NCBI GenBank assembly: GCA_020137815.1
Contig: CM035358.1
Span: forward strand, 1,612,001 to 1,676,000
Direction: 5' to 3'
From: Hormiphora californensis
Lineage: Eukaryota > Animalia > Ctenophora
Length of the DNA stretch: 64,000 nt
In this document: positions 13,268-64,000 of the stretch, in pieces
How positions within the stretch are numbered: position 1 is the first letter of the stretch
Layout of the letters: each line of letters begins with the position of its first letter
Notes under the pieces: model-generated
Databases searched by the model: none
Told to the model about the DNA's origin: nothing
Seen by the model: only the letters and a program-made list of their open reading frames with translations
Made by a program: the position numbers and the translations under genes

Positions 13268-16200
13268 CAGACAGAGAGACGGACAGAGACAGATCAGACA
13301 TAGAGAAATGAAAATAATATGTCAAGCAGACAGCTCTCACACATACATACACACATCCCTACAAACTTCCCAATTCGGTAGCTACCTAGAACTCACACAA
13401 GAGCACCCCCACGTGGATCACATCTACAGCATTTTATATTTACTGAGTCTCGATATACATAATTTGCCCGACTGATCAGTAGTGTCATATGTCAGTACCT
13501 GTCTTTCACACAGACAAGATCTGATCATGATTTCATTAACTGTGGACAGTAACCGGCAGTGATGTACAGAATATAAAAGTTATCATGTCAGTTCAAAGGA
13601 TGAAGCCACCCCTCTAGTGGTGCAGAACTGGGCCAGCCCTGTGTGTTTGTGTGTGCGTGTGTGTGAGAATGTGTGTTTGTGTCTGTGTCCTATCGCGAAG
13701 GTGCTTGTTTTGACGCTGAGTTCTATTAAAAGTACAGCATCTTCGCGCGCGCGTGTGTGTCGCTTTGGTGACACGCGCGCGCGTTTTCTGAGATCTGAGA
13801 GAGAAGAGCGATGTGTTTTTTGAGAGAGAGTTTTCTTTTGTCGGAACGAAGCAACTTTCAAAAGCGTGTGTTCTCTTAGTCAACTGAACTGTAACAATCC
13901 TTTACCGTTACTTTTACATTCACAAAAATAAAAGACAACGTGTTTACTTTCGCCTTTACGCTCCAGCTGACGGGTACGCCCCATACGTGTCACGAAACCA
14001 CCCCAAGAACGTCCCTTTCCAAACACCCCCGATTGCAGTCCACTTTACACCCATCTGGTGACTTCCAAGGAAACGGACCCATCGAAGTAAACTATCACCA
14101 TGAATAACCACCGTGCCCACTCACCGGTTGACAGCCTTGCCGGTGACATTCAACCTGGAATGGTGGCGCGACGTGTCTTGGAGTACTCCACACCACGCAA
14201 CCGGGATATCCGACTGAATCAGAGTGTTGTTAATCGCCAAAGAGCACATTTACCCACTACTTCCGTTGATGCTCAGATCTTTGAACCTCCGAGGGTCAGA
14301 CGATCGTTGTATGAAAGATCCCTTGACACTACCAGAAGAGTACCAGAACCGAGAGCAAATGCATCGATCATCAGCCAAGAGCCACTGTCTCAATGGGATA
14401 CTATCGATCAGTTTGATCTCAACTCCACAGTAGCTTCCAGTCGACAGGTACGGCCTAAGAGAGTCATCAATGCCCGGCAGCATCAACAGAACCAACAACC
14501 CAGCAGACTGCAGGACCAGCGTCCGCCAGAATCATACCTAGCAGATTTGAACATTTCACGAGTTGATTCAGGCCGAGAATCAGTGATTTTGCAACATGCT
14601 GATGCAGTTGCACCAAGGATCATGTCAAGTTCCCCGAAACGAGAGAATACGAGAGAAAGGATCCGAATCCCTGAAGATAGACCCAAGACGCCAGAAAAAA
14701 GAATGTCACGGATTTTGAACCTATCAAGAGTTCCCAGTCGCCGAAACACTTCATCAACCAAACCAGACATCAAACAGTCATCATCAAGCAAACCAAACGT
14801 GCCCATAGCTCCCGCGGTAGCTCCAACAAGTTACCCAGTAGCAAATCAACTGAACACGCAACCAACTCAGATCAACCAAAACAGAGCCCCTCTCCCTGGA
14901 ATAAAACCGCCAAAGTTCAAGGAAGGAAGTTGTCTGAAATCATACCTGGAAAGGTTTGAGGATTACCTTTCAACGGCGACCGTAAACCCTCAGGATGTGC
15001 GTGGAATCCTAATAAACTGTATAAAGTGCGATCAAACATACAGGCGGATACGCCGCCTGAAGTTCAGCCAGGAAGAAATGGCCGATCCAAATAAGCTGCT
15101 CAAGTTCATCCGTGACACCATACTGAACGATGCTGCCATCGCCGAGACAAATCGTTTGGAGCTAAAGGACATCAAACAAGAAGAATTCGAGTCGGTAACT
15201 GATTTCGCAGAGAGAATACACCGGGCAGCAGAACTGGCGTTCCCAGATGAATCAGATATCGTATCAACGCCAACAAGATAGACGCTCTACAAGATGGTCT
15301 CCACGACCGTGATGTTGCTAAAGATGTCTGTGACTGGAAGAAACAGGATATCGCCTTCGAGACTCTAGTTGCTGAAGCGGAGAGAGCAGCGACCCAGAAT
15401 AAAATTTTCAAGAGAGGCGGTGCTGAATCTGGAGCCACAGTCTACGCGATCCGGAACGAGGGACCACGAACGATCCAAAACCCGCCTTACCAGAGAAAGA
15501 CTTGGAACCCTTGCAAGTTCTGTAAGAAGACGAACCACTCAGAATCACACTGTAGGTTCAAAGATAATTTGCCAACTATGTGGCCAAGATTTACATGATG
15601 CCAAGAACTGTCCCACGATATCGAGCAATATCCAAGCAAACATGAACCCCGTGCAGACTCTACAAACCACGAACTTCCAACCACAGGCTTTCACAACTGG
15701 TAGTAGGAGACAAGCTACACAGTTAATACCTGGAACGAGAGAGCATGATAGGGCTAATGGCCTATGCTACATCTGCCACGAGAATGGACACCTTAGCAGA
15801 GCTTGCAATAACCGAGGTAGGCAGTTAAACGAGAGAGCGGTCGGAGATTTGAACAACACGAACACACACCTGAACTCCGGCCGCGTGAACTAACTCAGCG
15901 TACAATGACCCCGGCACAGAAAAAGGATATCAAGAAGAACAGGGTGACCACACCTGAATCTGTGCCGGTAGAATGCTTCTGGGATCCACCACGATCAGAG
16001 GAGGTGCATCCTAGAGAAGATGAAGGGGATACAGCAACATCGTTAAAAAGCACACACGCTATAGCGGGTACTGAAATAACACCCGATGAGAATGTTAGTG
16101 GTCTCTCCTCGTCATCTGATGTAGACGTCGAATCGAAGGACTTGCTAGTCACTGCAAAGTTGTCCCCAAGAACAAAGAAAACGGAAAAAGTGGTCATCCG

Positions 16201-19200
16201 AAAGCAGGAGAAGAATCAATCCCACACTGACGTGAGCGATGAGAAAAATGAAATAGTCGATAGTTCAGCAGTAGTTGAGGTCGAGGGCAACAATGAGGAC
16301 GATGTTATCCCTGAACCCAAGACCGAACGGAAGAAAAAGAGAAACAAGAGGAGCAAGGCAGCGAAAGTGAAAGCCCTCTCTGGAGAAGAAATACGGAAAT
16401 CTCAAGAAATTATTGTAAACGGACTCATCTATGGCCCAGCATGGTGTGAGGATCAAACTAAACACCGGGTGCGCATGTTCATCGATACAGGAAGCCAAGT
16501 TAACCTTATTGACTGGACAACTGTATGTAAGTACGGGCTAGTGTCTGAGATCCGTGAGACAAACAGAAAGTTGAGAGATTTCAGCGGAAATCGGATACCT
16601 TGCAGAGGCGCCATCTCCTTGTGTATGATAGTCGGAGGAGCCACCATTAATCTGGTCAACTTCGTGGTGTGCGAAGGAATGGATACAGATATTCTATTAG
16701 GTGACCCATTCTGGTCGTAGCACAGGAGCCGCCTTGGACTATACGAACGCTGAACTAAGAGTCCCAAATGGTGAACCAGTACCTTTCCTGCCAAGACCAA
16801 GAAGCACCAAGAAGATTCTCCAGATAAGGTGGGGAGAAACTACCACAATACCACCTCATACTATGGGGTATGTCGTAGGATCCCTGAAGGAAGATTGTCT
16901 AGGTGATACGATCGGTCTTGTCTCAACTGATTGGTCACGGAAAAATAATGGCCTACTCATTGGTGACGCAATTGCCGAAGCTATGGAAGGAGACATTCCC
17001 ATGAGAGTTTGAACTTTAGCGAGGAGCCGATAACCCTCCAAAGGGGTAATAAAGCCGCTAAATTTCCGCCCAGTGCCAGAGTACGACCCTTATTCTAGAG
17101 TGGAATGGGAAGACCGAATCCAATTTCTCCGTGAGTCTGAGGAACCGGAAGTCGAGAAATGGACAAAGGAAGAGCTATTCGAGCGTCTAAAAGTAAAAAC
17201 TGCATCCAGGAACCTCACGAAACAACAGGCTCAGATCTACAAGACATAATTTGGGAGCACAGGGACTGTTTTGCATACGATGAGTATGATCTCGGTTCCT
17301 GCATATGGTACAAAGCTACGATCAAGTTGAAGGAAGGGGCTACACCTCAGTGGACCCCTCCATTCCCTTGCCCATACAAGCTTGAGGGGGGAGATGCAGA
17401 AAACAATCGATGAGATGGTGAAAACGAATGTGGTGGAGATCCTTCCGCAACGGTCAGATTGGAACTCACCAACATTCCCTGGTACGAAAGAAAACACCTA
17501 AAGGGCAGCCTCAGCGTTACAGGCTTGTGTGCGACCTAAGGAACGTGAACAAGATGTGTATGCCAGCAAACTTCCCATTGGCTCATTTGGATCATGTCTT
17601 GGATAAAATCGGCCAGGACAAGATATTTTCCTCTTTTGACCTTACCCGAGGATACTGGCAGCTTCCCTATGACGAATCCTCGAACAGATCACTGCCTTCT
17701 TGTATAAGAACACCCAGTACGCATTCTCGAAGACAGTGATGGGCCATCGATCATCCGGACCATCTTTCTGCGATATGATGAATCGTCTGCTCGGATCTCT
17801 CCCGATAGAGCAAGTTGTCCAATTTGTGGACGACCTCCTCCTATCTTCTGTCACAGCTGACCAGCACCTTGATCGTTGGAACGGCTTCTGTCCAGATTGT
17901 ATGGTGCGAACCTCAAGATTTCACCAGACAAAAGTCAGCTGATGAGAGATGCAGTTGATTTCGTTGGAGTTCGTGTCAGCGGTGGCGGTATAAGTATCAC
18001 TGAAGACCGTGTAGCTGACCTCCCTAGCACTCCGTGAGCCTGAATCAAAGAAAGAGGTCATGCAAGCAATGGGTGCCCTGAACTATGTGAGAAAGTGGAT
18101 TCCAGCCTACAGTTTCTATCAGTAAAGCCAATATTCGCTTCTATACGCGGGGGAAAGGAGTGCAAGTTCAAATGGACCAAGAGTGATGAGCGTACGCCAA
18201 CTGAACAGCTCGTCGCGGAAGTACCAGCTTGCATACCGAATCCCCTCCCTACATCCCCTGGGGCCCCTGATGCCAGTGAGCGAGGTTTTGTGCCTCCTTT
18301 TCCCAGAATTGGATACACCTGATGGAGGTAGAGAACGAAGGATTGTCGCTTACTATAGCAGAGCACTCCCAGAGTACAAGAAATCGCGGGGACAGACGAA
18401 GCTTGAGTTCGAGGCTCTGTCCGCAGCAATCCAACACTGGACCATATATCTTTACAACGTGGAAGAGTTTGTCGTCATAACAGACTGTTTATCCTTGGTT
18501 AAAGCCGAGGGTACCCTTTTCACGAAACCAGACAACGCGGTGATCAAGAAAGTTCTGAAGTTAGCCGAATTCAACTTCAAACTCCGACATTTAAGTGGCC
18601 CGGAAAACAAGATGTGTGACTGGTTATCGAGGTTCAGCCTTCCGCCAACCAAGACCGAAGCCGAAACACAAACGACACCTCAAACTCATGAAGATTTGAC
18701 TAAAGTTGTCAAGGTTGTTAATCCATGCGATAGAAACAACGAAGAGATACAACAAAATGTCGTCCGAAAGATACCTGAGGATCGTCACAACTCCACAGAG
18801 TCCGAAGCAGACACAGAATCTGAAGCAGACACAGAGTCCAACCATGAAGATCGTTTTAGCAGCGACATGGATACAGGAACGTACACGTCTACTGAAGATT
18901 CATCTGAAGACATATCTCTGTCGACAACACGAGTTAGCAGTGCAAGCGAGTGCGAAGTCTTTATCGTACAGAGCACTCAGTTTCCGGAAGCATCGTACGT
19001 CACGGAGTATAAATACTTCAGTAACGGAGACGAGTCACCCACCCAATCAGATGAAAACAGCCACACGAAACATGAGAGTATTGGCTCGGAAGAAAATCTA
19101 GGCCTATGCAAGATACTCGACAATCTGGTGAGCTGTGAAGAGATAACCACCCATCCAATAAAAGTCATGAATGAAGATAACGAAGCAGAAGAAGAATGGT

Positions 19201-22200
19201 CATATGAGCAGGAGATTCATTGTTTATGCGCATCGATCCAGCAAAACGGGTAGATATTCCCGTAGCAGGAAGACATGGACTGAATGGGAAACTGCCCAGG
19301 AGCAAGATGACATTCTAAAATTAGTGAGACAATGGGTGAGTGACGGGAATAGACAAGTGGTACAAGCCAACAGGGCCCCACCTGATCTAGAGTCTTTGTG
19401 GAAACAATACCAGCTGCTCCGGTTAGAGGATGGTGTTTTGCAAAGAAAATGGCTCGATATAAAGACAAATGATTCCAACTGGCTGATCGTGGTACCTATG
19501 AAGGAGCGAGAAGAGCTTATCAGACAGGCTCATGACTTCCACACAGGTCACGCCGGAGTCAGTGCAACAGTTGATCACCTTCGAAGAAACTTTTACTGGC
19601 CGGCACAGCCCAAACAAGTCGGACTATACATCGGCCAGTGTGTGAATTGTGCATCCAACAAACAGCGTCAACAGACCTTCCAAGCCTAGATGGCCACATT
19701 TGTGTGTCACGAGTTCAACGCTGTGATAGTAATAGATCATATCGTTCCAGAAGCCCGTGGATCGACAGAAAGAGGCAACAAGAACGTCTTATCAATCACA
19801 GACGTATATTCAAACTTTCTAGTTGCAGTACCTACAAAAACCCAATCATCCATTGAGAGCCGTGAGAAAATTCTGGCTAATTGGATATGGAAGTTCGGTT
19901 GGCCGAGAGAAATAATCTGTGATCAACATCAAAACTTCAACGGCAAAGAATTCAAGGATTTCTTCGAAAAGCTAAACGTGAAAGTTCAACACGGCCAAGC
20001 TTATTCAGCCCGCAGTACTGGACGTGCTGAAAATAGCAACAAAAAGATTGATCGAATCCTCAGAGCAACCCTGTTTGAATCCAACCCTAAAGATTGGGAC
20101 TTGCATCTTGACCAAGTGTGTTTCAAGCTAAACAACACCAGATCCAGAAGAACAGGCTTCACGGCACACAGGATTGTATTTGGCACAGAACCAAACATGC
20201 CTGATGCGTTACATCTTCGCCGACCCATGGATAAAAAGGATAAGACTCCACAGATGGGCATTCCAGCGTCCGTCTACAACCGCTACCGAGAAATCTGTAA
20301 CTTGAGTTACAAAATCAGGCAGAACGTGGATGAAGACCTAATAGCGGCCAAAAAGCAATTCAACAAGAGACTAAATGACCCGGAGCTTGCAATTGGAGAT
20401 CAAGTTCTGGTGAAAATCCCGTGCCCGGTTCATAAATTTGGACCTAGGTTCGAGGGACCCTTCTCGGTGAGCGAAGTGATCAGCCCTTACCTCTACAGAG
20501 TGAAGATGAACGTGGGAAACAAGGTTATCGGTGTGGGAAAGTTGAAGTTGTATGCACGCAAAACTGTAGAGTGCAGGAATTCGGAGAAACCGAAGGATAA
20601 CATAACGACCAAATCAAACGCACTTCCAACGCCAGTGCAGCATGGAAATGCAGATCATCCGGATCGTAACGAAACAGTAGTTGAAATCGTGCCAACTCCA
20701 GAGAAACCCAAAGATGACCAAGAGACAGCTGAAACCTCATCTCCAACACCAGAGAAACCCAAAGATGACCAAGAGATAGCTGAAACCTCTACTCCAACAC
20801 AAGAGCAACCCGAATATGACCAAAACGAAGCGGAAACATCTTCTCTAGACCAAACCTTGGAAGAATTGGAGCAACAGCAAAATGACCCCGTGGACCGAGA
20901 GGAAAGACTCGAACCGGAATGGAGAGGACGACTACGCTCAACCATAACGGGCGTGAAACGGTTTGTGTAGCTCTGTTATAACCGTTGGACCTTGTTGACC
21001 TTGATCAAGGCCTATCTGATAACATCAATGTTAATTCATTTGTCGGCCGACTGGATTTGTCTTGATATGGTCACCTGACTCTTGACAGCTGTATTACAAT
21101 TCTGAATTTCCTGGTACTGCCTGTCAACCAGTGGCGAATAACTTGCTAGCTTGTTTAAACCTCCATTCCTGGTCCCAACTGCTGCTAATTCTGGTGAATT
21201 CATCTCCGCATTGAGGATAATCTGCTGATGCTCCAGAAGTTAAGATCATACCATTACGGTACGATCTCCCCTGTATATTTCTCGAAGTTGAGTATTCTCG
21301 ACACAAAGCTAAGGTCCCTTGGGGCTTAAATATCATGTCACCGATACAATGTTGAGAATTCTCGACGATTCACACCACGTCCGGATTTCATTTCAAAACA
21401 GTTATGTTGAGCACACTCGACAACCCGTTAAAATCCTTTTGGATTTATTTTTATAACCCCAACCAAGTTGAGTGTACTCGACAACCCATCAAATCCTCTT
21501 GGATTTCGATTTTATTTTAACAACTAAGTTGAGTGTACTCGACAACCCGTTAAAATCCTTTTGGATTTATTTTTATAATCCCCAACCAAGTTGAGAGTTC
21601 TCGACAACAGCAACCATACAACTGACCTCTATCTGTTGATATGTTTTGATGATCCAGAAACAAACTGAAACCTGATGACAAGGGTAAATGTGCTACCTAA
21701 CGATACATGGCAGCTCCCAATCTGCGATACCGGTGAACAGTTCATGTGAAGTGTGAACATGCGATATTTTGCTTCCTTGAGACATGATAAGGAGGTGAAG
21801 AGAAGCCGTGATCTATTGGTTGAGATCAATGGTTTTGTCAGGAACCGGCTGTTGCTGAAGTTTGATTACCCCCTGAGAAACTCGCTTGAGAAGAGTGAAA
21901 CAGACCGGTGTCCGATCCAGATCTCATCATCAATTTTCCATCAACCTGTGCGCCATCCTTTGACATCGTGTTCCTGGGGTGGACGGTATCGGCCAACATG
22001 GTGCAACGTGAACAGCAATGCCCCCTTTTAATTGGAACTTCAGAGACCTTTCTTCCTTACCTTCATCGTGAAATCATTGTTTAAAGCGAGAATTTCTCTG
22101 AGAAAGAGAAAACAGAAAAAGAAACAAATTGTAATATTTTATACAGTGTATTACTGACCATGAACATGTTTGTATTCACAAAATGTGAAGCTTTTAATGA

Positions 22201-28474: not shown

Positions 28475-41831
<13,357 letters not shown>

Positions 41832-42831: not shown

Positions 42832-44420
42832 TCACTCACTGCCACGATCAGTTATCTTCACTAACCGCTGTCCGGTCCTGATAACATGACCCTTCAGATT
42901 GCCACACAGTACCCCTCCACCATCGACCGGTCGTTCCTTTGCTGTCCAAAATCTCCAACTTCTCCTCGTGACACATTTCTGTCACACCCATAACCATATC
43001 CCGTACAACTAGGATCACCTTCCGACCCGCTCGAGATCTAATCTTGATCTGGCAGGTGTAGGGACCGGTGGTGGGAAGGTAAACTTCCCCCTGACGACCA
43101 ACAATCTCGCTGTTACACAAGCCATTTGCTGTAGGAATAGAAGGAAGGAACCGTTTTTGAGGCGTTGTTCTGCCACATTTTTTAGGCTTGAACCATACAA
43201 AGTGATTTGATGGTCGTATATGTGATTTTAAAACCAGTACTGGTGACGGTTCGATCAGATTTGAAGAGAATCCGAACAGAATCACTTTTCACGACCAAAC
43301 TGTGGGGTGTTTCCCGTCCACAAAGCACTGCAACAGTCTCCCATCCCTGCTGGAATCTTCTCACGTGTACCGCATCAAATACACAACCTGAACTGTCCTC
43401 CAGAGAAAACTTGTGAAAACGTAACCGAATGTAATGACCCAAGGGTGCTCTAATATCCCACATACAACTCGTATCAGGTGGATAATTATAGGGATAATTA
43501 ACGGAATAAATAACCCCTTTACTTTCCTCCATCCACCGATCACACATGAGGACACACTTTGTCCCATCAGGTACGTATCCCCGTTTGCAACTACACTTCC
43601 TACCTCGGGGGAGATCGATACAATAGTGTTGGCAGCCGCCATTGTTTACCAAACATTGATCCCCATCCTCCCCACACTTGTACAGTTTGTTTGTTTGCCG
43701 GATATCCCCCACAGACAATTCTACACGCTGTCCAATACCGAGGTGTTTGGATCGCAGTGGTACCAGCGTGTCCATGTCCCCCAAGTTAAATGCAGTCCGC
43801 CCATAGTGCATTATGCTGTGGTAATCGTATCTCATTCCAAGGCTATCCACCTCGCTCTCGTTTTTAAGGTCGAAATTATGTAGCGAATCATCTCGGATGT
43901 TTTTGTAAAGAACCTTAACATGTTTATCTCGATCAGGTCGGGCATGCTCGTGCCAGAAGCCGATGGCATGTCCTATTTCGTGTAGAATACTTCCCACATC
44001 CTCACACTCCTTTTTCGTGATACTAATTCCCTGTGGTTTACTGTTGGGAAACTGCTGCATACCTACAAAGGAGCAACAACCACAGTCCTGAGGCTCAAAC
44101 TCCAGGCCAAACGGTTGTTTCTTTAGGGGAACAAACTTGAGGCATGTATACACTTCCCATGTTTTTATTGCTTTCCGAATGTTTTTCACAACTTTTTTGT
44201 CAAACTTTTGAGAAATCTGATATGGTATTGTCCCATTCGGCCACAGTAGCTGTTTATTTGAGCTTGCTGCACGTTTTTCCCTCCCTGATTTTACAATAGA
44301 AATGTCAGATTGAATCCTCTCGTGATCAGGATGGCACGGGCTGTTGATTGGGACGGTACTGGATCGACAGATGGGGTATAAAATGAACAGGACTGCAACA
44401 ATGAACATCAAAACTTTCAT
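42832..44420 (-). CDS. Secreted astacin metalloprotease, BMP1/Tolloid-type catalytic domain plus EGF, CUB and CUB
   Basis: Signal peptide, furin-like REKR|AA site, CGCCSFVG, HEIGHAIGFWHEHARPDRD and Met-turn SIMHY. EGF reads CLVNNGGCQHYC, followed by CUB1. An in-frame 70-nt intron (43198-43129) leads to CUB2, which has a 1-nt frameshift near 42940. The 3' end is uncertain. Confidence 0.88.
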
Positions 44421-44550
44421 AAAAGCACGTCATTTAGCATTTAAACTGAAAGTGAAATAAGAGTAAGACATTGAAGACTTGAGACTTGAGGCAAAGGCCA
44501 AAGAGCGAAAATTAAAAAGTTTGAAACGTTTTCGAAAACAAAGTCAGAAG

Positions 44551-48357: not shown

Positions 48358-50542
48358 ATGAGTCATGTTCTAAAAGGACAAACACCCACTTTAAAATCTG
48401 TTAGGAAGCTGCAAAACCTCTCAAAGGTATGTTCGATGTAGGTTTATAAAGTAAATTTTCATCATTACTCAATTAAATTCCCTTTCAAACATTTGATGTT
48501 TAAATTGTTAAATGATCCCCCTGTCTGTTTGCAGGTGGTGTTACAAGGTGGCAGTGTCGCACTTCTCAACTGTGAAAATGGGTTGAACTCTATTTCCAGT
48601 GATTTTGGATGTGTTTTGGAAAACTTCCAGGAGGAAGAGGACATACTGTTAGTGTTTTACCGGAACATGCTACGCTCCTTCCCTCACTCAGATTTGAAGA
48701 CAACTCTCACCTTCCTCTCGACATCTCTCCTCCTGTCCTCAATCCCGCCCACAATAACATCAAATCCTGTCAAACTCAGAAGTGCGGTGATCCAGATCAA
48801 AGCGGTGATTTCCCAGACTTTGAACAGAATTTCAGAACCACTTAGTATCAGAACGCTGTCCCATCTCAGAGGCCTGGTAAATGGTGTTCTGACTCCCAAA
48901 CTATCTCATGTGTTCACACTCCCTCGCCGGCGTGAGATAATATCAACTTTTCTTGAGGGATATCTTACCTGTATTTCTTCAGCTAACTACCCTAAGTTCC
49001 GGGTTGAAACTGTTCAGTCGAATCGGTCATTTAAAATGTGTGAATTGAAGTTTCATCATGGTATTTTGTTAACTCTTTCTCGGCCAAAACTGGCAGAAAA
49101 GAGGCTATCACAGAAGGAGAAACAGAAGAAGAAGACATTTTCAGTTGTTGTTTTTAGCTGTCCGCTGCCAAAGGAGCTTGAGAATTGGGAGGGGGAAACA
49201 GTAAACTTTGTAAATAGTTCTCAGAGTATGGAACAGAAGCTGGTGGCTGGAAGTATTGAGATACTGAATGACCATTTATCTCGTGAACCAGTTGATGTAG
49301 TGTTTTCTCAAAAAGTTGTTCATCACCAGATTCGGCAGTTTCTTGAGGAGAGGGGAGTGCTTGTATTGGATAGGTTATCAGTTTTCTACGCTGAAGATAT
49401 GGCAACTCTGGCCCGAACTACCCTCTCCCCGAGTATGGGGGTTTGGAATGTGGGAGCTCTGGAAATAGCTGGAGTAGTGGAAATGGCGGACAAGCATTTT
49501 CTGAATGTTTGCTCGAGTGGTACACATTTTGGCACACTTCTACTCCAGACGAAGGTATAGTGCGGGGCGCGCGGAGTTGACAGTCTGTAAAAAGTCGCGC
49601 GCAGTGTGTTGTCAGCACTGTTTATTCCTTGGCAACAGAAGAAGGTTATGGCGGTTATATGGAGGGGTGATGTTTAGAAATTGCAAAAAGAACCATTTCT
49701 TCATTCAACAGTTGCCTTGATCGACCCCCTCTCCCTCACAGATTAGAACATACTATATTCCATAGGTTGAATTGATTAGTGAGGGGATTAAGAAAGTGTT
49801 GGAAAGGAGCTGGGAGGTATGTAACAGTGTCATGGCTAGCAGAAGAGTGGTATACGGTGCCGAGTGTTTATGGGCGACCTTAGCTAAATCTTTGCATGAT
49901 GAAAAACAGGTTTATAGCTATATTATCACATGTTCCCTTGTACACACGTTTTTCAGTTTCCTCCACACTCACCAGGGGGTCTTTCACGAACACTTCGGTC
50001 CTAACTTTTTTGGGACCAATATTGCACTAGGACTTTTTTGAAATGGCTTTCACGAACAGAAGTTGGGGGTAGGCGGGGAGGGTAATTACCCCAATGCTCT
50101 CTATTTTGGCTTTCACGAAACTGAAGTTAGGACCGTAACTCACGTAGTCCTAAAGTCGCACGTGACCCATGTGAGTGTTGAAAACCAATAGGTAAACAAA
50201 CACGTGATCACCAATAGCCATTTATGATTCAGATAGACTGACACGAGTATAAACATGATCACGTGACATTCGCAACAGAAGGGTGCAGGTGGAATTTCCA
50301 GTCAAATTGGTGTATGAATAGTATTCATATATCAATGAATACATCAGTATTCTCTCTCTCTCTCACCCTCTCTCCCTGTTCATCTCTCTTTCTCTCTCAA
50401 TCTCTCCCTCCATATCTCACTCTCTGTATCTCCGGCCTCTCTCTCCCTCTCTCTCTCTTTACCTCTCTTTTTCTATCTTTATCTCACCCTCTCTGTCAAA
50501 CCCTCTCTATCTGTTTATCTCTCTTTCTCTCTCACTCTCTTC

Positions 50543-55100: not shown

Positions 55101-58100
55101 ATGGATCGTAGTAACAGTAGTTCCTCCTCCTCCCCCTCCATACAACTACAAGGTGAGTTGTTGCACGCTACTGCAATCTGCATGTGTAGTTGATATGGTT
55201 GATAATTGATATGGTTGATGTACAGGGTGTTCATTTTGGATCTTTACAAGCGTTGGCCTTCACCCAGAAAAAAGTTGACAAGATCAGGTCATGAAACTTC
55301 ATACTTGGACTATTCTATACCCTCATTCAAGGTTCCTGGGGGTTTTGGAGCTCTAGCACCCCGGGAAGTGTGTTTTTGGCATCACAACTACCAGAAGGAA
55401 TTTTTTGCTGGTGCTGAGACTTTGCTAAAATGTTTTTTGGGTATTTTCTATGTCAATCCTAAAGTTTCATAGAGATTGGATGTGTTTTTCAGACTCAAAA
55501 TTGCGATAGAAGTGGCTGGAAAGGCTCGAAAACAGCTCAAAAACGGCTAAAATTGAGTCTTTCCAGCCACTTTTTACGAAATTTTGAGTCTGAAAAACAC
55601 ATCCAATATCTATGAAACTTTAGGATTGACATAGAAAATACCCAAAAATCATTTTAGCAAAGTCTCAGCACCAGCAAAAAATTCCTTCTGGTAGTTTTGA
55701 TGCCAAAAACACACTTCCCAGGGTCCTAAAGCTCCAAAACCCCCAGGAACCTTGAATGAGGGTATAGAATAGTCCAAGTATGAAGTTTCATGACCTAATC
55801 TTGTCAACTTTTTTCTGGGTGAAGCCCAACGCTTGTAAAGATCCAAAATGAACACCCTGTACATGTGAGGCAGACATACAGAAGTCTCTAGATGCGGTAT
55901 CATCTTGTTGAGGTTAACAAGTATCATCATATTCGTAGTTAGAGTGGGGGTGGGAGAGAAGTAGAATATACAGATGGAACTACTAGAACAACTATAGATG
56001 GGAGAGTTAGTACAATTCCGCAGTTCCCACAACATGTGTGTGTTATGTTAAACATCTCCTAACAAGCAAGCTCTTGGGCTAGCGATAGAGGTCACAGAGA
56101 GAGAGGGGGGAGAAAGTTAGAGAAATTAAACAGAGAAAGAATGAGAGAGAGAACTTTTTAGCGCTCTTCACTTGGTCGTATTATAGCTTGCACGGTCTTT
56201 CTTGTTATAAGACTCCGATTTGATTTGCGTATGTGAAAAATATGCGTTTAATAGTCGAAGCTCTCTTAGTTGCCTTGATATAGTCCATATAACTGCTTAA
56301 TCCAAAAACTACTTGTTAAATGCATGAAGGTTAAATTGTTGAATTTGAAGCGGAAGAGAAATATAGCAGTAGTAGGGAGAGTGTTGGACGAGTAATGTGA
56401 TATATTCGTTACCTAGGTAACCATTCTACCTCTTTCTCACCTCCCTTGCTTTCTATCCCTCTCTATTTTGGTTTCTTGTTTCATTTTAGTATGTATTTTC
56501 GTCGCTTAGGGTGCGAATTTTAAACCATTTTTGTGACATGAAGCACTGAGACAGTTATTTTCTTGATTTCGTGAAACAGTCTTACTTTTATGGAACCGCA
56601 TTTTTATGTCTTAGATGTCATTTTGCGAAACCTTTGAATAGAGAGAAAAAAGTAAAAAGAAAAAACCATGATATACTGGTAAGAGATGGAGCAAAAATAA
56701 CTATAGGGAGGGGGAAGCAATCATAGAGTGGGTGCTTGTAAAGCAATTAGTCAAGCATGGCTAGTAGCTCTGCAGGGTGGTTGAGTAAGGGAGCAGCTCT
56801 GAGTGGTTTTATTGCTTTCTTCCTCTCATCTGCAGGGCCTTCATTAGCTTCTTATTTCTTAGCCTTGTAACTTGTTGTGCGCCGGGTGAATCGTTCAATT
56901 GAGTATTCGAATGAGACACAATGTGTCACAAATTGCCAGGCAATAATACATACTCCTTTGATCCTTGTTATACTTATGGATTGATTTGTATTACACATTT
57001 TGTAATAAATGTTAACATTGTTACTCTATCGAATAGTAATACCCCTTGCTCCAAGGTACAATGAGTAGACCAACTACGGCGGGGACGGCGCTGACAAGTG
57101 CCACAGGGGGATATATCAGTGATAGGAGCATGGCTTACAGCGTTATCAGTAATCAGTTTCCCACAACTGGAGAGGTTTGTTTTTTAAATTTTCATTATTC
57201 AGTAAACAGCTGTGCTTTTCAGTAATAAATTAATGCGAATTAATTCCAGCATATTTTGTCACCAGAGCATCAAAGGACACATGTGTACACATGCTAATGT
57301 TTCCAAAATTGTAACCATGGACTATCGCCTTACGCCTATCCAGTGGATAGGCGTAAGGCGATAGTATCCACTGCAGCTGCAGTATAATGCAGCCATTTCA
57401 ATCGTCTTCGTGTTATTCCTTTCTTGTTTGTCCTACCTGTTGTATCCCATCTGTGTAGCCTTCTTAACGTACTTACACATCTAGCATCAGGTATTATTGT
57501 TGCCAAAAGTGAATGCAAGGAAGTCAATACATTTCTCTAAAAACTTGGCCGGACCCAAGATAATGGCGGTCCGTGAAACTGCCCAATGGTTAACCAGGTA
57601 TGTTACAGTTACAAGAATTGACAAAGTTTCTAGTTGAACTAGGATTCCTTTGAATCTTGAGTCAAACGCCTTGACATGACTCAGAACTCTTTATTCTTGA
57701 CTCTTGATATGATGTTCTGAATAAAGAGATATGAGCAAGAATTAAATAGGGAAGAAAATCAAAAAATACTTGAATGATGATTTGGAATTTATCCCAATAT
57801 GTTCTCGCAGCATCAATAACCGAATGTCTGACGATCTTGGGAGGGAGCACAAGAAGTTGGATGATTCATATCTCAAGTGGTACAGAAAACATTTCAATGA
57901 GGTATTAATAGTAGAGTTTCAATTACATGAACTAAAATCCTGCTCCCTCTTTCCACTTTATAGTTTATTATCTGTTTGTTACATGTGTGTAACTATTACT
58001 CCCCTACCACATCTCCTCACTTCGTTCCCTTCATATGTGAATTCCCTGACCCCTTCATTCTAGCTTCCTATCACCTCCCTGACCCACAGAAGAAAGATGT

Positions 58101-58654
58101 GTTGGCTAAAGTTAGTACCCTGCTGAACACCGCCCGCCAAGAGAAGGTACAGCGATGTAGGTCGTATCAGTCGTGTTACTCTAACCCCTCGACCAGCGGC
58201 AGCAGAATGCGGAGGACCACTCACAACCGGTCGTCAGCAACAAACTTCTTCGCAACTCAACTTCCCGACGTGGAAACGGTGAATAGTGGTGCAGCAGCAG
58301 ACCTACCAGCAGCAGCGTCAGGGGTAGGCGTATTGATCTTAATAGCATGTACCTACCTGATATATATATTGTTTCCTTCAAAAACCGGGAGCACCTGTCA
58401 TACCCTTAATTTTCCTTTAAAAAACCATTGATTAATTTTAAATAATATTTGATAATTTGACTACCATTCCTTGTTTCTCACATCTACTGCCCAGTTGCTT
58501 TCAGGAACCAGTAGACGACCAGGGAACCGCAGAAAACACCACCACACCACCTACCGGCCAAGATGGGGAGCAGCAAGGTGAGAGGAGGAGTGTAGCTTCA
58601 GATAAAGTTTCCAGTCCACAGAAAGTGAAAATAATTACCCCGCATCCGGTCTAG
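55101..58654 (+). CDS. Uncharacterised multi-exon protein with no recognisable domain
   Basis: Phase-consistent exons 55101-55152, 57056-57174, about 57266-57310, about 57485-57597, 57811-57901, about 58090-58323 and 58505-58654 form one open frame, MDRSNSS...KIITPHPV*. Confidence 0.6.
55223..55859. mobile_element. Foldback Tc1/mariner-like MITE, an almost perfect 637-bp palindrome with TA TSD
   Basis: TA|CAGGGTGTTCATTTTGGA ... TCCAAAATGAACACCCTG|TA. The CAGGGTGT terminus is shared with 32413-33946. Confidence 0.9.
57321..57365. repeat. Perfect 22+1+22 palindrome in an intron
   Basis: ACTATCGCCTTACGCCTATCCA-G-TGGATAGGCGTAAGGCGATAGT. Confidence 0.85.
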
Positions 58655-58933
58655 ATCTCTGTCTAGAAGCTAGTTCATCACGTACTATGAATTATGAAAA
58701 TAACTTTATCCGTGTACTGCTGAGTGCTGAAACAAATGAACTTCAGGAGACTGTGTCACGTCAGAAAAAAAAACATTATAATTTGAATTAATTTGAATTA
58801 TTATTAGAGGAGCCATTTATTATTATTATTATTAAATCTATATAATTTACACAATTTAATTGTATAAATAAGCCCCTTTTTTGTGGGCAAATACGGGTTA
58901 CCGATAGATATTAAAGTTCATTGAAGATACCCA

Positions 58934-59896
58934 TTATGAAAAGTCTATCACCCCCCTCCGTACCCGGAATTGGCCTCCAGGATTCGAGTCCCTCAACTCC
59001 TTCAACGTTTGGTGGAGTTCTCTCCTCTCACTTCTCTCTGCGAAGGACATATCCCTTGCAAGATATACACCGCAGTACGATTCTAACTGTTTTAGCTGCT
59101 TTGCCTTCTGGAGAAGGCTTAGCAGCATTTCCCTACTCTGTAGCTTCACAATCACTGGTCTCTCCCTTCCTCCCCGTTTCAAACCCACCCTTCTAGCTTC
59201 TATGGTCGGTTTCTCGCCTAGCTCAGCAAAAACATTTTCCACTTCACCCTTTAACACAGATTCAGTTTCATCCTCACATTCCGGTAGACCAAACACCATC
59301 AGATTTTTCGATCTGTCTGGGCCGGTATCAACTGGCTTGTGCGTGACCTTTTCCACGGCTTTCTGGATATTTTTCGATGCAAACGCAGTCTTACAATTCT
59401 GTGTGACGACTGCAGAGAAAGTACGCAAATCTTTCTGTACCGTCTCGGTAACTCGATTCAGTTGCTCGCCCTGAAGCTCAATAACCTGCTCTTGTAACTT
59501 GACAGTTCTTCTCAAAAGATCATCACACTCCACTTTCAACTTCTCCTCCTGCTCCTGCAACTCGAGAGATTTTCTCAACAGTTCATCTCGCTCCTCTTTG
59601 AGTTCATCTCGCTCCTCTTTGAGTACCATCTCAGGGGATTTCTCGGCAAAGATATGACGCTCAAAGTGTTTTAGAACAATAAACGTTGCAAAGCTCATTT
59701 CTTCAATCAGTTGCTTTAGCTCATATTTCGTGTGTACAGAGTTGATTTTAACTGATGACGGTATTTCAGCATCGTTGAAATCTGGACTGCTCCTGCACTT
59801 TTTTAAGACATTGCCAGCGACAGAGCTCTCTCCACTTTTGGCCAGCGTCAGAATCCGTCTTACAGCAAAGTCCAATTCTCGTTGTTCGTCTGCCAT
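58934..59896 (-). CDS. Intronless LINE ORF1p-like protein (coiled coil + RRM-like + C-terminal domain)
   Basis: A heptad-rich LKEERDEL region is followed by DRSKNLMVFGLPE...RRVG...RPVIVKL...VYLARDMS..ER, the pattern typical of non-LTR ORF1 proteins of the L1/CR1/L2 type. Confidence 0.8.
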   Translation of the reverse strand: MADEQRELDFAVRRILTLAKSGESSVAGNVLKKCRSSPDFNDAEIPSSVKINSVHTKYELKQLIEEMSFATFIVLKHFERHIFAEKSPEMVLKEERDELKEERDELLRKSLELQEQEEKLKVECDDLLRRTVKLQEQVIELQGEQLNRVTETVQKDLRTFSAVVTQNCKTAFASKNIQKAVEKVTHKPVDTGPDRSKNLMVFGLPECEDETESVLKGEVENVFAELGEKPTIEARRVGLKRGGRERPVIVKLQSREMLLSLLQKAKQLKQLESYCGVYLARDMSFAERSERRELHQTLKELRDSNPGGQFRVRRGVIDFS

Positions 59897-59945
59897 TATC
59901 TTACGTTCTGCCCTTTGGGGCCGTTACATCGCCATGTTGCTGAAA

Positions 59946-59988
59946 CTCAAATTAATTTGTTTAAAGTAGTGTTGAAAAGTTTGAAACT
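59946..59988 (-). other. Genomic copy of the spliced-leader exon (43 nt)
   Basis: Minus strand AGTTTCAAACTTTTCAACACTACTTTAAACAAATTAATTTGAG. It matches the cydippid ctenophore SL as I recall it. It is not followed by a GT donor, so it is not an SL RNA gene. Confidence 0.85.
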
Positions 59989-60223
59989 ATTAGAGGAGCC
60001 AGAGGGATGTGTTGCTGAAGTGTTATACAATACAAAATATAAATTTATAATCCGCTTTTCAACTGTCCGTATTTACGGCACAGCACAAGTTCTGCTGCTG
60101 GAAGGAAAAAGATTCATCGCTTGGCGTCTCCTCTGAAATCCTCAGCAGCCCTCGCTCCAAAAGCGGCTAGCTTTATAACAAGATTATGAAGTAATAGTTT
60201 ATGTAGGAGGCATTTATATAGCT

Positions 60224-61168
60224 CTATCCTACGTGGATTATATTGTTTTTGATGTAGTACTTTCCGCCCGGGTCCTCTAAGCGGAGCTTTTTCAAGGTAT
60301 TTATGAGGGCTTTTCGCTCCTTAATTTGGATCGGTGTTAGATCTGGTGACAAGTAAACAGTTGCGAAATGTTCCGAGGTCTTGAGCTGTCGCGACTTTTT
60401 CAGCAGCGCCATAAGTGTCGCTCGTCTTTCAAATGAAACCAAAAGTGGTCGAGGGCCCTTCTCGTTTTTCTCGCCGATACGTTTCATCGAATTAACTTTC
60501 GGTTTTTCGTTCAGCTCAGCAAACAAACCATCGACACTGGTCTTGGTCAGGCGGTCAGTTGTTTCAGGAATACCGAAAATAACAAGGTTTTTATCCCTCT
60601 CTGACAATGGTGCGTGAGTTGGTTCTTGAGAAGATTTTCTCACCACTGGCGAGACTGCAGCACAGTTTTGAGCAAGTACAGTAGAGTAAGCTTTCACCTT
60701 CTGCACTGAAGTTGTCATTGAACTGAGTTGCTCCTGTTGGTTGTTAATCAAGTTTTGTTGCAGCTCGATCACTGTAACACGGTGGCGGTCAAGTTCTTCC
60801 TTACACTTACTCAACTGGTCTTCTACTTTCCTCGTACTACTAACCTCATCAAGGCTAAACATTGAACACCTCAAAAGTTTCACACCGGACAGAAATGTTT
60901 TACACGTAGTGTCAATAATTTCCTCTTTAGATAAAGTCTTGAGAATTCGTCTAAAGTGAGAACATATATCGTCACCAGGTGAACCAAGTTTTGACTCAGG
61001 GAATTGTTTGATAAAGTTGTAGCTATTCGTTACTTTTTGTGGTTCAAAAGTTATCTCTTCCGAGGTATCCTCGTAATCCATTCTCATAATTTCCATAACA
61101 TGGTCGTTCACTGCTTTTATCAATCGTTCTCTCGTAGGGTTATCGCCCTCGTTGTCTTTCGTTCCCAT
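60224..61168 (-). CDS. Second, divergent intronless LINE ORF1p-like protein (copy B)
   Basis: ERDKNLVIFGIPE...LFAELNEKP...KRIG...RPLLVSF...VYLSPDLT..ER...PGGKY is homologous to copy A in the C-terminal half. ATG at 61168. Confidence 0.8.
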   Translation of the reverse strand: MGTKDNEGDNPTRERLIKAVNDHVMEIMRMDYEDTSEEITFEPQKVTNSYNFIKQFPESKLGSPGDDICSHFRRILKTLSKEEIIDTTCKTFLSGVKLLRCSMFSLDEVSSTRKVEDQLSKCKEELDRHRVTVIELQQNLINNQQEQLSSMTTSVQKVKAYSTVLAQNCAAVSPVVRKSSQEPTHAPLSERDKNLVIFGIPETTDRLTKTSVDGLFAELNEKPKVNSMKRIGEKNEKGPRPLLVSFERRATLMALLKKSRQLKTSEHFATVYLSPDLTPIQIKERKALINTLKKLRLEDPGGKYYIKNNIIHVG

Positions 61169-61174
61169 CACTAT

Positions 61175-61201
61175 CTCAAATTAATTTGTTTAAAGTAGTG
61201 T
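61175..61201 (-). other. 5'-truncated genomic spliced-leader copy (27 nt)
   Basis: Minus strand ACACTACTTTAAACAAATTAATTTGAG, identical to the 3' part of 59946-59988 and 6 nt upstream of the copy B ATG. Confidence 0.85.
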
Positions 61202-62686
61202 GCTGCTGTATTCCTGTTATAATGTGTCCAAAACAGAGTCTAAAAGTAAACCGTGTTTGTTATCTGTTTGTTATCTGTCTCATAAACACTTGTAATTGGT
61301 GAAGTGGCGAACATGGAGTATGAGGATAGAAAATTTTAAAAAATCGGGTCTTGTCTCTTGGCGTCACGTCTGCATTCTGCAATTCGGAAGGGTAGCGGGG
61401 AAGATCGAAATGTGTTTATCCTTCTATAAATCTCACAATTTCAAGTCTTTGTTTTATATCAGGATTCAGGAGGTGGCGCTTTTCCGTGATTTTTTTTCCG
61501 GGAAAAAAGAACGTGAACGTTCCTGTTCAGATCAAGTTGCGCCCGGGTTGTTAGTTGGGCGCGCGGCGCTTCAAAAAAAACATCGGCTAAACGCGCGGTC
61601 AATACACGCACGTTAAACTTCTGTCTGTCGCGCGCTACATTCATCTAATTTCCTCCAGTGTAGCCCCATTATCTGCATTTGGGTGCCTCCACTCTCCAGG
61701 CACAGACAAGCAACCGCCAAAAGACTCGAATGTTATTGAGTAAGAGGGGAACCCCTCAAATTAGTTATCAAGGGCCTTTATATTATTATTTACCACCGAT
61801 ACAATTTATCACTGCGAGTTCACTGAGACTGGGAGTGGGAATGAGTTGTATGATACATCTCATTCCCACTCCCAGTCCTTGGTCCCAGTCTCACTCTTCT
61901 TATAGTGAACCTCTCACTCCCACTTTCATGTTATCATTACTGTCAGTCGCTTCCCTTGAGAGTGAGTGTTACAGGCACCAATTAAACAACTATATAAATA
62001 GAGTGAAAATTAATAAGAATAGAACAAATATAAGAATATCTATAGAAGTAGAACAAGATTAATAGCACCAAACATGAGTACATGCGACTAGACTTCCTAA
62101 ACTTCACTTTAAATATTAACTAAACCTACAAATTTTATAAAATCGGCATTGGATATAAATTAAAGTTAAACTCTATATGAAAAAGTGTCTTAGATTCCTC
62201 GATCTCCAAAGTCCTAAATAAAGGTACAGTTCTCTGAACAAGATTGACTGCTGTTTTTGAAAAGAAGAACTCGTGTAATTCCTGCAACCCTTGGAACATC
62301 TGATCAAGAACCTTTCGCTTTGCCCTGAAATTAAATACGATTAGGCTACGAAAATATAACGAGATTAACTATGAAGAAATGATGTTCATTCAAAAACATG
62401 AAACTAGTTGGAATGACATGCTAACAAGATACTCAGGTCATGCAATTGTAGGCATATCTTTGTAAAGAATAGAGAGGTGGACAAACCAGTGGTTTGAAAC
62501 CACCAAGAAAGGGGCCGCCGGCGGTTCAACCGCACAAACGCCATAGTATAACATAAGCAACTCAGACCTTGAACCTTTGTAATATAGATTCAAGGTCAGA
62601 GTTACTTTTAGGGATTCTCTCCCCAATCCCCATGCATGCTCCAGTCACAATACACTATCACTACATCATGTAACATGGACATACTC

Positions 62687-64000
62687 TCAGTTCGAACACG
62701 GTTTGTCTTCTAGCCGCTCATACACAGATCTCGGTCGGAGGGTCTTTAGTACAAGCTTTCTACATGAAAATTAACTTTAGTACAAGCTTTCTAATGAAAA
62801 TGAACTTTTGAGCGGGACTGATCGAAAAGAGGGGTAGGCCATTGTTCAATGGGGTTTTAATTCATTACACATTTACACATTAATCAATAATCTGACGACA
62901 ATCTGAAATCAAGAGCTCAAATGATCAGTTTCCTACCTGTGCCAAAGTGTGAAGAGAACTCCCAGAAGTTGGACCACTGAAACAGCAATAACTGACATCC
63001 CAATATTGCGAACAATCCTGTTTATAAACTCTCCTGAAAACAATAGATTGGAATAATATATCAAATGAACTTTTTGTACTGGTTGAAGGGGGGGGGGGTC
63101 GAAGGGGGCTATGGAGCTATGGAGCTGTCAGGCCTTGTTGAGTAAGGGGGAAGACACTCTTCCCCCTTACTCAACAAGTCAGGCCACTGCTCTGACCACA
63201 GTTCTCGTTTGGCTCCATTGCAACCTATTCTCGCTCCGCGAAGAATAGGCTCCCGGCCTGTGGACAGCAAGAACTCACGTGCGCGCGATGTAAAGCACGT
63301 TTTCAGCAGTGGGACTATCAAATCGCGCGCGAAATACTGTTTTAGCAGGCATTTTTAGCCGACATAGCACTACCAAAACCCCAATTACCGCCTCAATTGG
63401 CACTTTGATGTATCGGCGGGTATTTTCCCATACTCACAAGGCCATGACGATTCACCCAGTACCCGCAGATTGTCCCAGGACCGAGTAGGAGCTTGCAGCC
63501 AGGTCTTTAAAGAATTGCTCATGTTTAGCGTCAATTTTGACCCACTATTCCTCAAATGCTGATATTCGCGGGTATTTTCCGTAAAACTAGAGACAATTAT
63601 CTGCCAGGAGCAACAAACGAGATGCAAATCGGTTCAGTAGTTCCTTGCAGCCAGGTCTTTGAAAAAGTTTGCTCTAAAATCAATAACGCGCCGGAGGCCT
63701 AGATGTGAGATCGATCTTGGTCGCTGCGCGACCTCGATCTCACTCAGGCATCAATGTGGCCAAAGTTCTCGTGCAGAACAGAAATGAAGAAGAAATGAGA
63801 ATAGGGTCAGGCATATGGAGGGGGGGGGGGGGGCGGCCAACGCTATTACAACTCTAGAGCCAAAAAAGGCATCAATCCTAATGATACCAACACAAACTTT
63901 CATGCGCCGTATGAGATGGGAGTCTGGACATCTACAATTACCTATTGCCTCGTTGCATCCAACTGAGTACATGACGTCACAGGATGACGTCACACAGCAG
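62687..64000 (-). CDS. 3' part of a tetraspanin-like gene
   Basis: Exon CCVTSSCDVMYSVGCNEAI (end of EC2, donor at about 63941) joins in phase to exon 63033-62936, GEFINRIVRNIGMSVIAVSVVQLLGVLFTLWH (TM4). A probable last exon 62759-62687 reads RKLVLKTLRPRSVYERLEDKPCSN*. Confidence 0.7.

Follow-up and report, generated by a model that had tools for sequence, protein, structure and literature searches.

The 64,000-nucleotide (nt) stretch of Hormiphora californensis DNA analyzed here (assembly GCA_020137815.1, contig CM035358.1, positions 1,612,001 to 1,676,000; referred to below as the window) contains, near its right-hand end, two short retroelements, A and B. Each consists of a spliced leader (SL), one open reading frame (ORF) and a 3′ untranslated region (UTR) ending in a repeat tail (Table 1). 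An initial annotation had described two tandem, minus-strand, intronless ORFs with no reverse transcriptase (RT) or endonuclease ORF nearby. Both points were confirmed: the ORFs, of 320 amino acids (aa) in A and 314 aa in B, are intact; no RT or endonuclease frame of a long interspersed nuclear element (LINE) was seen in the 64-kb window; and the sole RT-type motif in an open stretch of it lies about 41 kb off, near 17.8 kb, in a Ty3/gypsy-like element. Element A was said to run from the SL start to a (TAA)n tail between perfect 14-bp target site duplications (TSDs), and it does, the first base of its 43-nt leader doubling as the last base of the TSD. A chance origin of this perfect direct repeat was rejected, the probability being about 4e-9 per site and 2e-6 when 400 offsets are allowed. 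Two details were refined. Leaders of 43 nt (A) and 27 nt (B) are indeed present, and of B's 27 letters only 24 surely derive from the element, the other three occurring also in the empty allele described below (microhomology). The hexamer TTTCAG, placed by the annotation 6 nt after the SL of A, is present and adjoins the leader directly; only its AG ends 6 nt past the AG of the SL.

Table 1. Features of elements A and B (positions are counted from the first letter of the window).
Feature	Position	Strand	Remarks
TSD of element A, downstream copy, 14 bp	58802..58815	minus	single copy in empty allele
(TAA)6+A tail, 3′ end of element A	58816..58834	minus	sequence; X7 and X8 contigs and L004
3′ UTR of A	58835..58933	minus	predicted 11-bp stem-loop at 58869-58845
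ORF A, 320 aa	59896-58934	minus	intact, intronless; LINE ORF1p-like (coiled coil, RRM and CTD by homology to ORF B)
5′ UTR of A	59897..59945	minus	TTTCAG at start; 24-nt motif common to distant L003-type subfamily
SL of A, 43 nt	59946..59988	minus	nt 2-44 of published ctenophore SL
TSD of element A, upstream copy, 14 bp	59988..60001	minus	perfect repeat; empty-allele joint
Original host DNA between insertions, 23 nt	60002..60024	unstranded	in empty-allele contig of X1
3′ UTR of B with short TTGTA-type tail, 3′ end at 60025	60025..60223	minus	predicted structured
ORF B, 314 aa	61168-60224	minus	intact, intronless; predicted coiled coil + RRM + CTD like L1 ORF1p
5′ UTR of B, 6 nt	61169..61174	minus	relatives: 14 more nt ending in pyrimidine-rich AG before it
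5′-truncated SL of B, 27 nt	61175..61201	minus	61199-61201 microhomology with target

The window was compared with contigs of four DNA runs out of 24 listed. One contig of run X1, 2715 nt long, spans positions 58085 to 62200 without A or B (flank depth 43.6). Its joint 58801->59988 omits 1186 nt, and 14 letters, those of the TSD, fit on either side; the contig then retains 59988-60024 and, at the joint 60024->61199, omits 1174 nt with four other letters between. The joint at B was also found in X5, a run from another study. The DNA run X13, from a second organism, holds the empty site too (joints 58815->61197 and 60024->61237), and the empty state is therefore likely to be ancestral. Element A is an insertion of 1186 nt that includes one copy of the 14-bp TSD, and element B an insertion of 1174 nt located 23 nt upstream of that TSD. 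Since the empty allele contains the 23 nt of host sequence lying between the tail of B and the TSD of A, the two elements are separate insertions, absent here from other individuals, and a single composite element was rejected. Both are recently mobile and polymorphic. Each is bounded by the empty allele and contains one ORF and no RT or endonuclease of its own. The empty allele lacks the SL, which shows that the leader arrived with the element, and an SL RNA gene as the insertion target was rejected on the same ground.

The ends of the insertions have features of target-primed reverse transcription: simple-repeat tails, the 14-bp TSD in A, and in B, which has no TSD, a 4-nt target loss and 3-nt microhomology at the 5′ end. 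L004, a related locus introduced below, likewise has no TSD. Duplication, truncation and an unaltered target are all described for elements without long terminal repeats (non-LTR elements; PMC4494074).

The 43-mer of A (59988-59946), taken for a genuine SL by the initial annotation, is identical to nt 2-44 of the leader, 44 nt long, that PMC8527503 gives for ctenophores. Its last 27 nt are repeated exactly at 61201-61175 ahead of ORF B, and no further copy of the 20-mer at the SL 3′ end was found in the window at <=3 mismatches. Neither copy is followed by GT, so that neither is an SL RNA gene and this identity was rejected for both. A search of Rfam found no SL family at 56000-64000, and sub-threshold miRNA-like hairpins only. 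The 27-mer had no matches in viral contigs or in prokaryote genome contigs.

Protein searches identified 13 and 25 relatives of the two ORFs and 926 representatives at E <=0.001; the 146 new relatives among the best 150 of the 926 have a median length of 286 aa, and one exceeds 400 aa. The named homologues of the ORFs are Pleurobrachia bachei gene models, which points to a ctenophore, probably a pleurobrachiid, as the source of the window. A metagenome scan of 208 candidates gave nine loci, four close (L001-L004) and five distant (L005-L009). L004 matches A at 81% identity over 1182 nt and comprises 38 nt of SL, an A-like 5′ UTR, an intact ORF, an A-like 3′ UTR and a (TAA)n tail, in flanks unrelated to those of A. 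L001 resembles B at 83% identity over 1176 nt, with a tail of pentamer repeats, and L002 combines a B-type ORF with a different 3′ UTR and tail. In L003, 26 nt of SL and the A-type 5′ UTR motif are joined to a B-like ORF, the contig ending 5 nt past the stop; the X13 joints 61152->59906/59908 support the same combination. Found in A as well as in the L003-type subfamily (protein identity about 30%), this 24-nt motif folds no better than shuffled sequences (z -0.4 and -1.0). Contigs of X7 and X8 end an A-type element at the tail and continue into other flanks (loose ends in X7 at 58815-58817), and record 19 of X7 ends at 60025, the 3′ end of B. In a quick tree of 42 rows A and B fall into separate, well-supported clades of 8 and 14 rows. 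The summed contig depth in X1, which is not a copy count, was 532-949 over the body of A and 261-1452 over that of B, against 43.6 in the flanks.

Among the loci examined no close relative continued into an ORF2, and three out of four ended in tails within 225 nt of the stop. The ORFs are not single-copy, in view of the 13 and 25 protein relatives, the several loci and the high contig depth, and the close relatives examined give no support to simple deletion derivatives of copies bearing an ORF2; single-copy retrogenes and such derivatives were outcomes that the initial annotation had weighed against its own proposal. Fused longer forms (605-2000 aa) were absent among 7989 candidates, which is weak evidence, and relatives were absent among 113 candidates in viral contigs. 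Homologue contigs are shorter than 2 kb in 31 out of 32 cases with a listed length, and as such contigs are generally short this carries little weight. In the two longer homologues the fused parts are unrelated domains of host proteins (PSF3_N; PB1/PDZ) and in neither case an RT; these proteins, P0188 and P0045, are probably gene-model chimeras arising from insertions near host genes. The distant loci L005-L009 (29-32% identity) lacked an SL, and the 120-500 nt examined downstream of them contained no ORF of >=90 aa. They are distant ORF1-like genes standing alone and may represent further ORF1-only families.

The leader has not diverged together with the elements that carry it. A and L004 share 38 of 38 SL letters although their synonymous divergence (dS) is 0.48 and their UTRs match at 42/48 and, at the 3′ end, 82/95 aligned letters; the probability of such identity is about 0.002 at 15% divergence and 8e-8 at 35%. 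B and L003 are identical at 26 of 26 SL letters at dS 1.9. All four canonical leaders (A, B, L003, L004) end exactly at the last base of the SL, ahead of three different 5′ UTR starts. To judge by these sequences, the undiverged SL and the exact splice-point ends fit the addition of a new leader through trans-splicing at every round; strong selection on the SL head is also possible. A one-time capture of the SL is disfavoured because the leader stays identical while the bodies diverge and the junction is constant before three UTR starts. Template switching to SL RNA was rejected, the junction lying exactly at the exon end in 4/4 cases.

The B lineage has a second type of junction. Relatives of B in L001, X5, X8 and X13 carry a leader followed by 14 nt that end in a pyrimidine-rich AG, a form supported by loose ends at 61173 in X5, X8 and X13. 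In the window, B has the canonical SL joined exactly at the position of this AG, with one mismatch at +1. Either re-capping behind an older leader has left this junction as its footprint, or a single source gene uses two acceptors. In L001 and in the B relatives of X13 the leader departs from the canonical SL. As for A, the initial annotation had proposed that TTTCAG serves as a recycled acceptor. The hexamer is still present in every A-type junction seen (5/5: the window, L004, X8 record 28, X11 record 13 and X13 record 28), leaving this proposal unsupported, and it was rejected.

ORF A and ORF B are 37% identical over the C-terminal 207 aa (E 2e-40). Neither matched Pfam at the curated cut-off; 26 aligned relatives gave weak Pfam matches only (best E 0.0012), and a sequence search of PDB gave none. 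ESM Atlas gave unnamed clusters with few recorded taxa, mostly Ctenophora, and a weak lead to PF25298. An AlphaFold2 model of ORF B, built from 26 sequences, has a long helix, an RNA recognition motif (RRM) and a domain at the C terminus (CTD), with block means of the predicted local distance difference test (pLDDT) of 72-86 over residues 191-314. When this model was searched with Foldseek, ranks 1-10 were all the human L1 ORF1 protein (ORF1p), with a best E of 7.6e-6. L1 ORF1p also held ranks 1-3 in VIA-align at Z 9.7, 9.0 and 8.8 (Z 9.7: root-mean-square deviation 2.7, 86 aligned; Z 9.0: 4.0, 119 aligned), only 1 Z above generic RRMs. ORF B is thus predicted to fold like L1 ORF1p (type II ORF1), with ORF A its homologue, in agreement with the earlier description of both products as LINE-ORF1-like. 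Type II ORF1 is known in L1, CR1, L2 and R1 elements (PMC4120745), and for this reason the fold leaves the clade of the parent LINE unnamed.

Ratios of nonsynonymous to synonymous substitution (dN/dS), computed with a Nei-Gojobori script, were 0.16-0.27 in all five pairs, with bootstrap upper bounds of at most 0.37; the value for ORF A and L004 is 0.27. By this sequence-based measure the ORFs are under purifying selection. The ratios and the several deep subfamilies agree with the suggestion in the initial annotation of an old lineage under selection.

Microsatellite tails without poly(A) were found in 5/5 copies whose 3′ end was seen (A, B, L001, L002, L004); they include (TAA)n, (TATTTG)n and (TTGATA)n. 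The same stem is predicted in the 3′ UTRs of A and L004, with modest z values of -1.8 and -2.0. B and L001 share 171 of 187 aligned 3′ UTR letters, and their predicted folds have z values of -3.1 and -1.9. A comparison of B, L001 and L002 revealed a mosaic: over the first 320 columns 48 informative sites group L001 with L002 and 14 group B with L001; over the last third B=L001 leads by 46 sites to 9, the 3′ UTR of B also being common to L001. Read from these alignments, 3′ ends are exchanged between subfamilies; chimeric assembly of L001 is a possible source of the pattern. A separate observation is that ACACTT follows the tail in both B (60023-60018, minus) and L004 (about 1622-1627), five of its six letters also occurring in the SL. 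With two cases, either chance or a preference for certain targets may be the reason.

In three RNA runs the SL was joined to many different sequences (loose ends at 59943-59946), as expected of a leader. These runs had no cover at 60010-60597, which carries no weight. Two candidate host exons lie on the strand of the elements, 0.9-1.8 kb upstream of B, at 63033-62937 and 62323-62135. They have splice-like ends and no Pfam match, and the first encodes a hydrophobic helix; none of 20 flanking frames gave a convincing Pfam match. Such upstream exons could supply read-through transcription into B.

We consider it probable, with good confidence, that A and B are derivatives of LINEs, non-autonomous and limited to ORF1, and that they transpose through an SL-capped RNA, which the enzyme of a partner LINE copies. 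The initial annotation had likewise regarded them as retroposed trans-spliced RNAs, and the empty alleles, the copies at L004 and L001, the predicted fold and the dN/dS values support this for ORF1-only families present at multiple loci. Copying would likely proceed by target-primed reverse transcription with the partner's enzyme. The ORF1p would package its own RNA and enter the particle of the partner, a scheme put forward earlier for HAL1, HeT-A and Ag-Sponge; the structured 3′ end, with its predicted stem-loops, and the tail would recruit the partner RT, different subfamilies borrowing different 3′ ends; and the leader would be renewed in each round by host trans-splicing. As to the source of the RNA, copies located in transcribed same-strand DNA may be released from longer precursors by splicing to an AG in the old leader or shortly after it, and re-capping of this kind would also repair 5′-truncated copies such as B.

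Re-capping of integrated copies is the RNA source that we tentatively favour, at slightly less than even confidence. It is favoured because the promoter is lost with the outron at each jump, so that expression must be regained, and because the subfamilies are of long standing and under selection. Both the freshness of the SL and the B-lineage footprint speak for it, retention of TTTCAG in A speaks against it, and contigs cannot show the starts or loci of RNAs. The promoterless form of re-capping we regard as somewhat more doubtful. A shade more tentative again is a general class of promoterless protein-coding retroposons that parasitise both host trans-splicing and a partner LINE; these would keep the leader end as an acceptor, undergo operon-like excision from read-through transcripts and regain a full capped leader, which would reverse 5′ truncation, and head-to-tail clusters in transcribed DNA would be favoured. 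A and B are arranged head to tail at a spacing of 23 nt, and another such arrangement occurs in X13, the second organism, where an A-type tail is followed by 14 nt and then the start of an SL (joint 59981->58817).

The fresh SL and exact splice junctions would also be expected if a few source loci with their own promoter and outron produced RNA that was SL-capped once and retroposed by a partner LINE, the SL-headed copies being dead ends. This would account for the presence of TTTCAG in all five A-type junctions and would make the long and short 5′ forms of B products of alternative acceptors. We find it rather unlikely: loss of the outron would deprive each copy of its promoter as well and new source loci would hardly arise, yet there are several deep, selected subfamilies that also have exchanged 3′ ends, and no outron-bearing copy was found among the loose ends listed. 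Improbable, in our judgement, is inheritance of an SL captured once, with a promoter inside the element that starts at the head and selection preserving it. The 24-nt 5′ UTR motif common to A and the L003-type subfamily despite their distant proteins, and the diverged leaders of L001 and X13, agree with such a promoter, and relict SLs of dinoflagellates have been proposed as promoters (PMC5585692). However, B has just 6 nt of 5′ UTR and lacks the motif. Three different UTR starts are found behind the SL, the junction in each case falling on the last SL base, and even at a dS as high as 1.9 the leader has not departed from the host sequence.

Two further origins concern the body of the elements. 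Recent internal deletion in, or read-short copying of, an autonomous LINE that itself starts with an SL could have produced the ORF1-only form; full-length CR1 transcripts in Hydra bear SLs (PMC12220107), and some B-like contigs continue into unread sequence. The junction of ORF1 and 3′ UTR is, however, common to copies at dS of about 0.25-0.5 and to two organisms, which indicates that the short form is an old lineage, and with three of the four close loci ending in tails so near the stop this origin is very unlikely. We give even less credence to an origin as processed retrocopies, not transposons in themselves, from host genes of a domesticated L1TD1-like family derived from ORF1. A 5′ SL, intronless ORFs and purifying selection would be equally expected of them, and the SL is found on 56% of Hormiphora Iso-Seq reads (PMC8527503). 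Their tails should not be (TAA)n, (TATTTG)n and (TTGATA)n in place of poly(A), the 3′ UTRs are conserved and swapped between subfamilies, and the subfamilies are many and divergent (13 and 25 proteins).

Several observations weigh against the explanation favoured here. No partner LINE was found, the search having had no whole eukaryote genome to draw on, and no partner 3′ end is present in the 64-kb window. Only one of the three insertions with both flanks seen (A, B, L004) has a TSD, and two B-like contigs (X1 records 3 and 4) extend past the stop into 91-131 unread letters. The model of ORF B has a mean pLDDT of 64 and a predicted template modelling score of 0.35. RNA support for transcription is weak: contigs over A were of low depth in all three RNA runs compared, with DNA carry-over possible, and the lone RNA contig across the SL junction of A is identical over 59793-59966, with just 21 letters in the SL. 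In the competition between 3′ splice sites a better CAG 6 nt downstream should beat the terminal GAG of the SL; re-capping of A would nevertheless need this GAG, and the 6-nt loss expected from use of the CAG occurs in none of the indel rows listed. Alternative use of two acceptors in a single master gene would account for the footprint in B equally well, and the footprint has one mismatch at +1. Should the leaders of L001 and X13 be decayed relics and not variants of the SL, then renewal of the leader does not take place on every occasion.

ORF1-present bipartite non-autonomous LINEs include HAL1 (L1 clade), HeT-A (Jockey) and Ag-Sponge (CR1) (PMC5786205, PMC5753468). The ctenophore elements resemble them in encoding an ORF1p-type protein only and no RT, in being multi-copy, and in having a LINE-type 3′ end and an ORF1 under selection; as in HAL1-type elements, the single ORF has a predicted coiled coil, RRM and CTD. 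The known elements are described as retaining the 5′ part of the parent LINE, whereas here the 5′ end is the host SL at its splice point. Unlike in HAL1 proper, this holds for A, B, L003 and L004, and the UTR of B is 6 nt. It is the SL head that sets the elements apart from known ORF1-only LINE derivatives of the HAL1/Ag-Sponge type. Microsatellite tails and variable TSDs distinguish them from mammalian L1, and tails of this kind in place of poly(A) in 5/5 copies distinguish them from processed pseudogenes. SL sequence is also found at the edge of NeSL, SLACS, CRE and CZAR, autonomous LINEs that insert into SL genes. Here, unlike in those elements, the empty allele has no SL and neither SL in the window is followed by GT.

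SL-bearing retrocopies, mostly of short non-autonomous retroelements, were reportedly noted in the 2010 Hydra genome paper, and if so the novelty of the present elements is lower. In dinoflagellate retrogenes a relict SL likewise marks a retroposed trans-spliced mRNA, and the relict AG has been proposed as an acceptor for a new SL (PMC5585692). Those, as described there, are passively recycled host genes; here a transposon family in an animal has its own ORF1p-like RNA-binding protein and a LINE-type tail. In Hydra about 30% of Iso-Seq reads from transposable elements carry the SL (PMC12220107), another case of element RNAs using the host trans-splicing machinery. That account, in the sections available, covers transcripts; it contains no ORF1-only families with a genomic SL at the 5′ end and proposes no re-capping cycle. 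SINEU elements, short interspersed elements headed by U1/U2 small nuclear RNA, also show repeated addition of a spliceosomal small-RNA sequence at the 5′ end; their heads are ascribed to template switching, they have no evident internal promoter and their transcription is described as open (PMC4494074). SINEU is non-coding, whereas the elements described here code for protein and their head ends exactly at the splice point in 4/4 canonical cases. The available parts of PMC7986045 and PMC3273482 contain nothing further on SL-bearing retrocopies. No description of SL-headed ORF1-only families in ctenophores was found in the literature searched, Repbase and subscription journals being outside its scope.

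Non-LTR elements must rebuild their 5′ end and promoter at each jump, and their solutions include internal promoters and terminal repeats. Self-cleaving ribozymes and heads transcribed by pol III are further solutions (PMC4494074, PMC5786205). If the proposed cycle is true, a leader renewed by trans-splicing would be another, and selfish elements would acquire an interest of their own in SL trans-splicing, a process that arose repeatedly in animals for reasons not yet explained. If re-capping does not occur, recently mobile and polymorphic ORF1-only elements in ctenophores can still be used as population markers. Part of the SL copies counted in ctenophore genomes (718 in Hormiphora and 491 in Mnemiopsis; PMC8527503) may be theirs. 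They also confound gene models, as in the Pleurobrachia bachei model in which one is fused to PB1/PDZ domains.

Other features were observed in the window. The Ty3/gypsy-like LTR retrotransposon mentioned above occupies 14091-20970 (+) in several frames, which are gag-like or correspond to aspartyl protease, RNase H, integrase and, near 17.8 kb, the RT-type motif. A single open frame of 415 aa at 43182-44429 (-) encodes astacin, EGF and CUB domains (BMP1/tolloid-like), with no introns across them. Frames at 10703-11416 (-) and 48442-49560 (+) match Sulfotransfer_2 and, below the cut-off, Cpn60_TCP1. A tandem repeat array with several long repetitive open frames lies at about 34829-35809. At 55218-55864 there is an inverted repeat of 310 nt, 96% complementary, with 27 nt between the arms, possibly a foldback or miniature inverted-repeat element. 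Three near-perfect palindromes surround the locus, at 57321-57365, 61827-61877 and 63134-63178 (arms of 21-25 nt, spacers of 1-3 nt), and have sub-threshold miRNA-like matches in Rfam.

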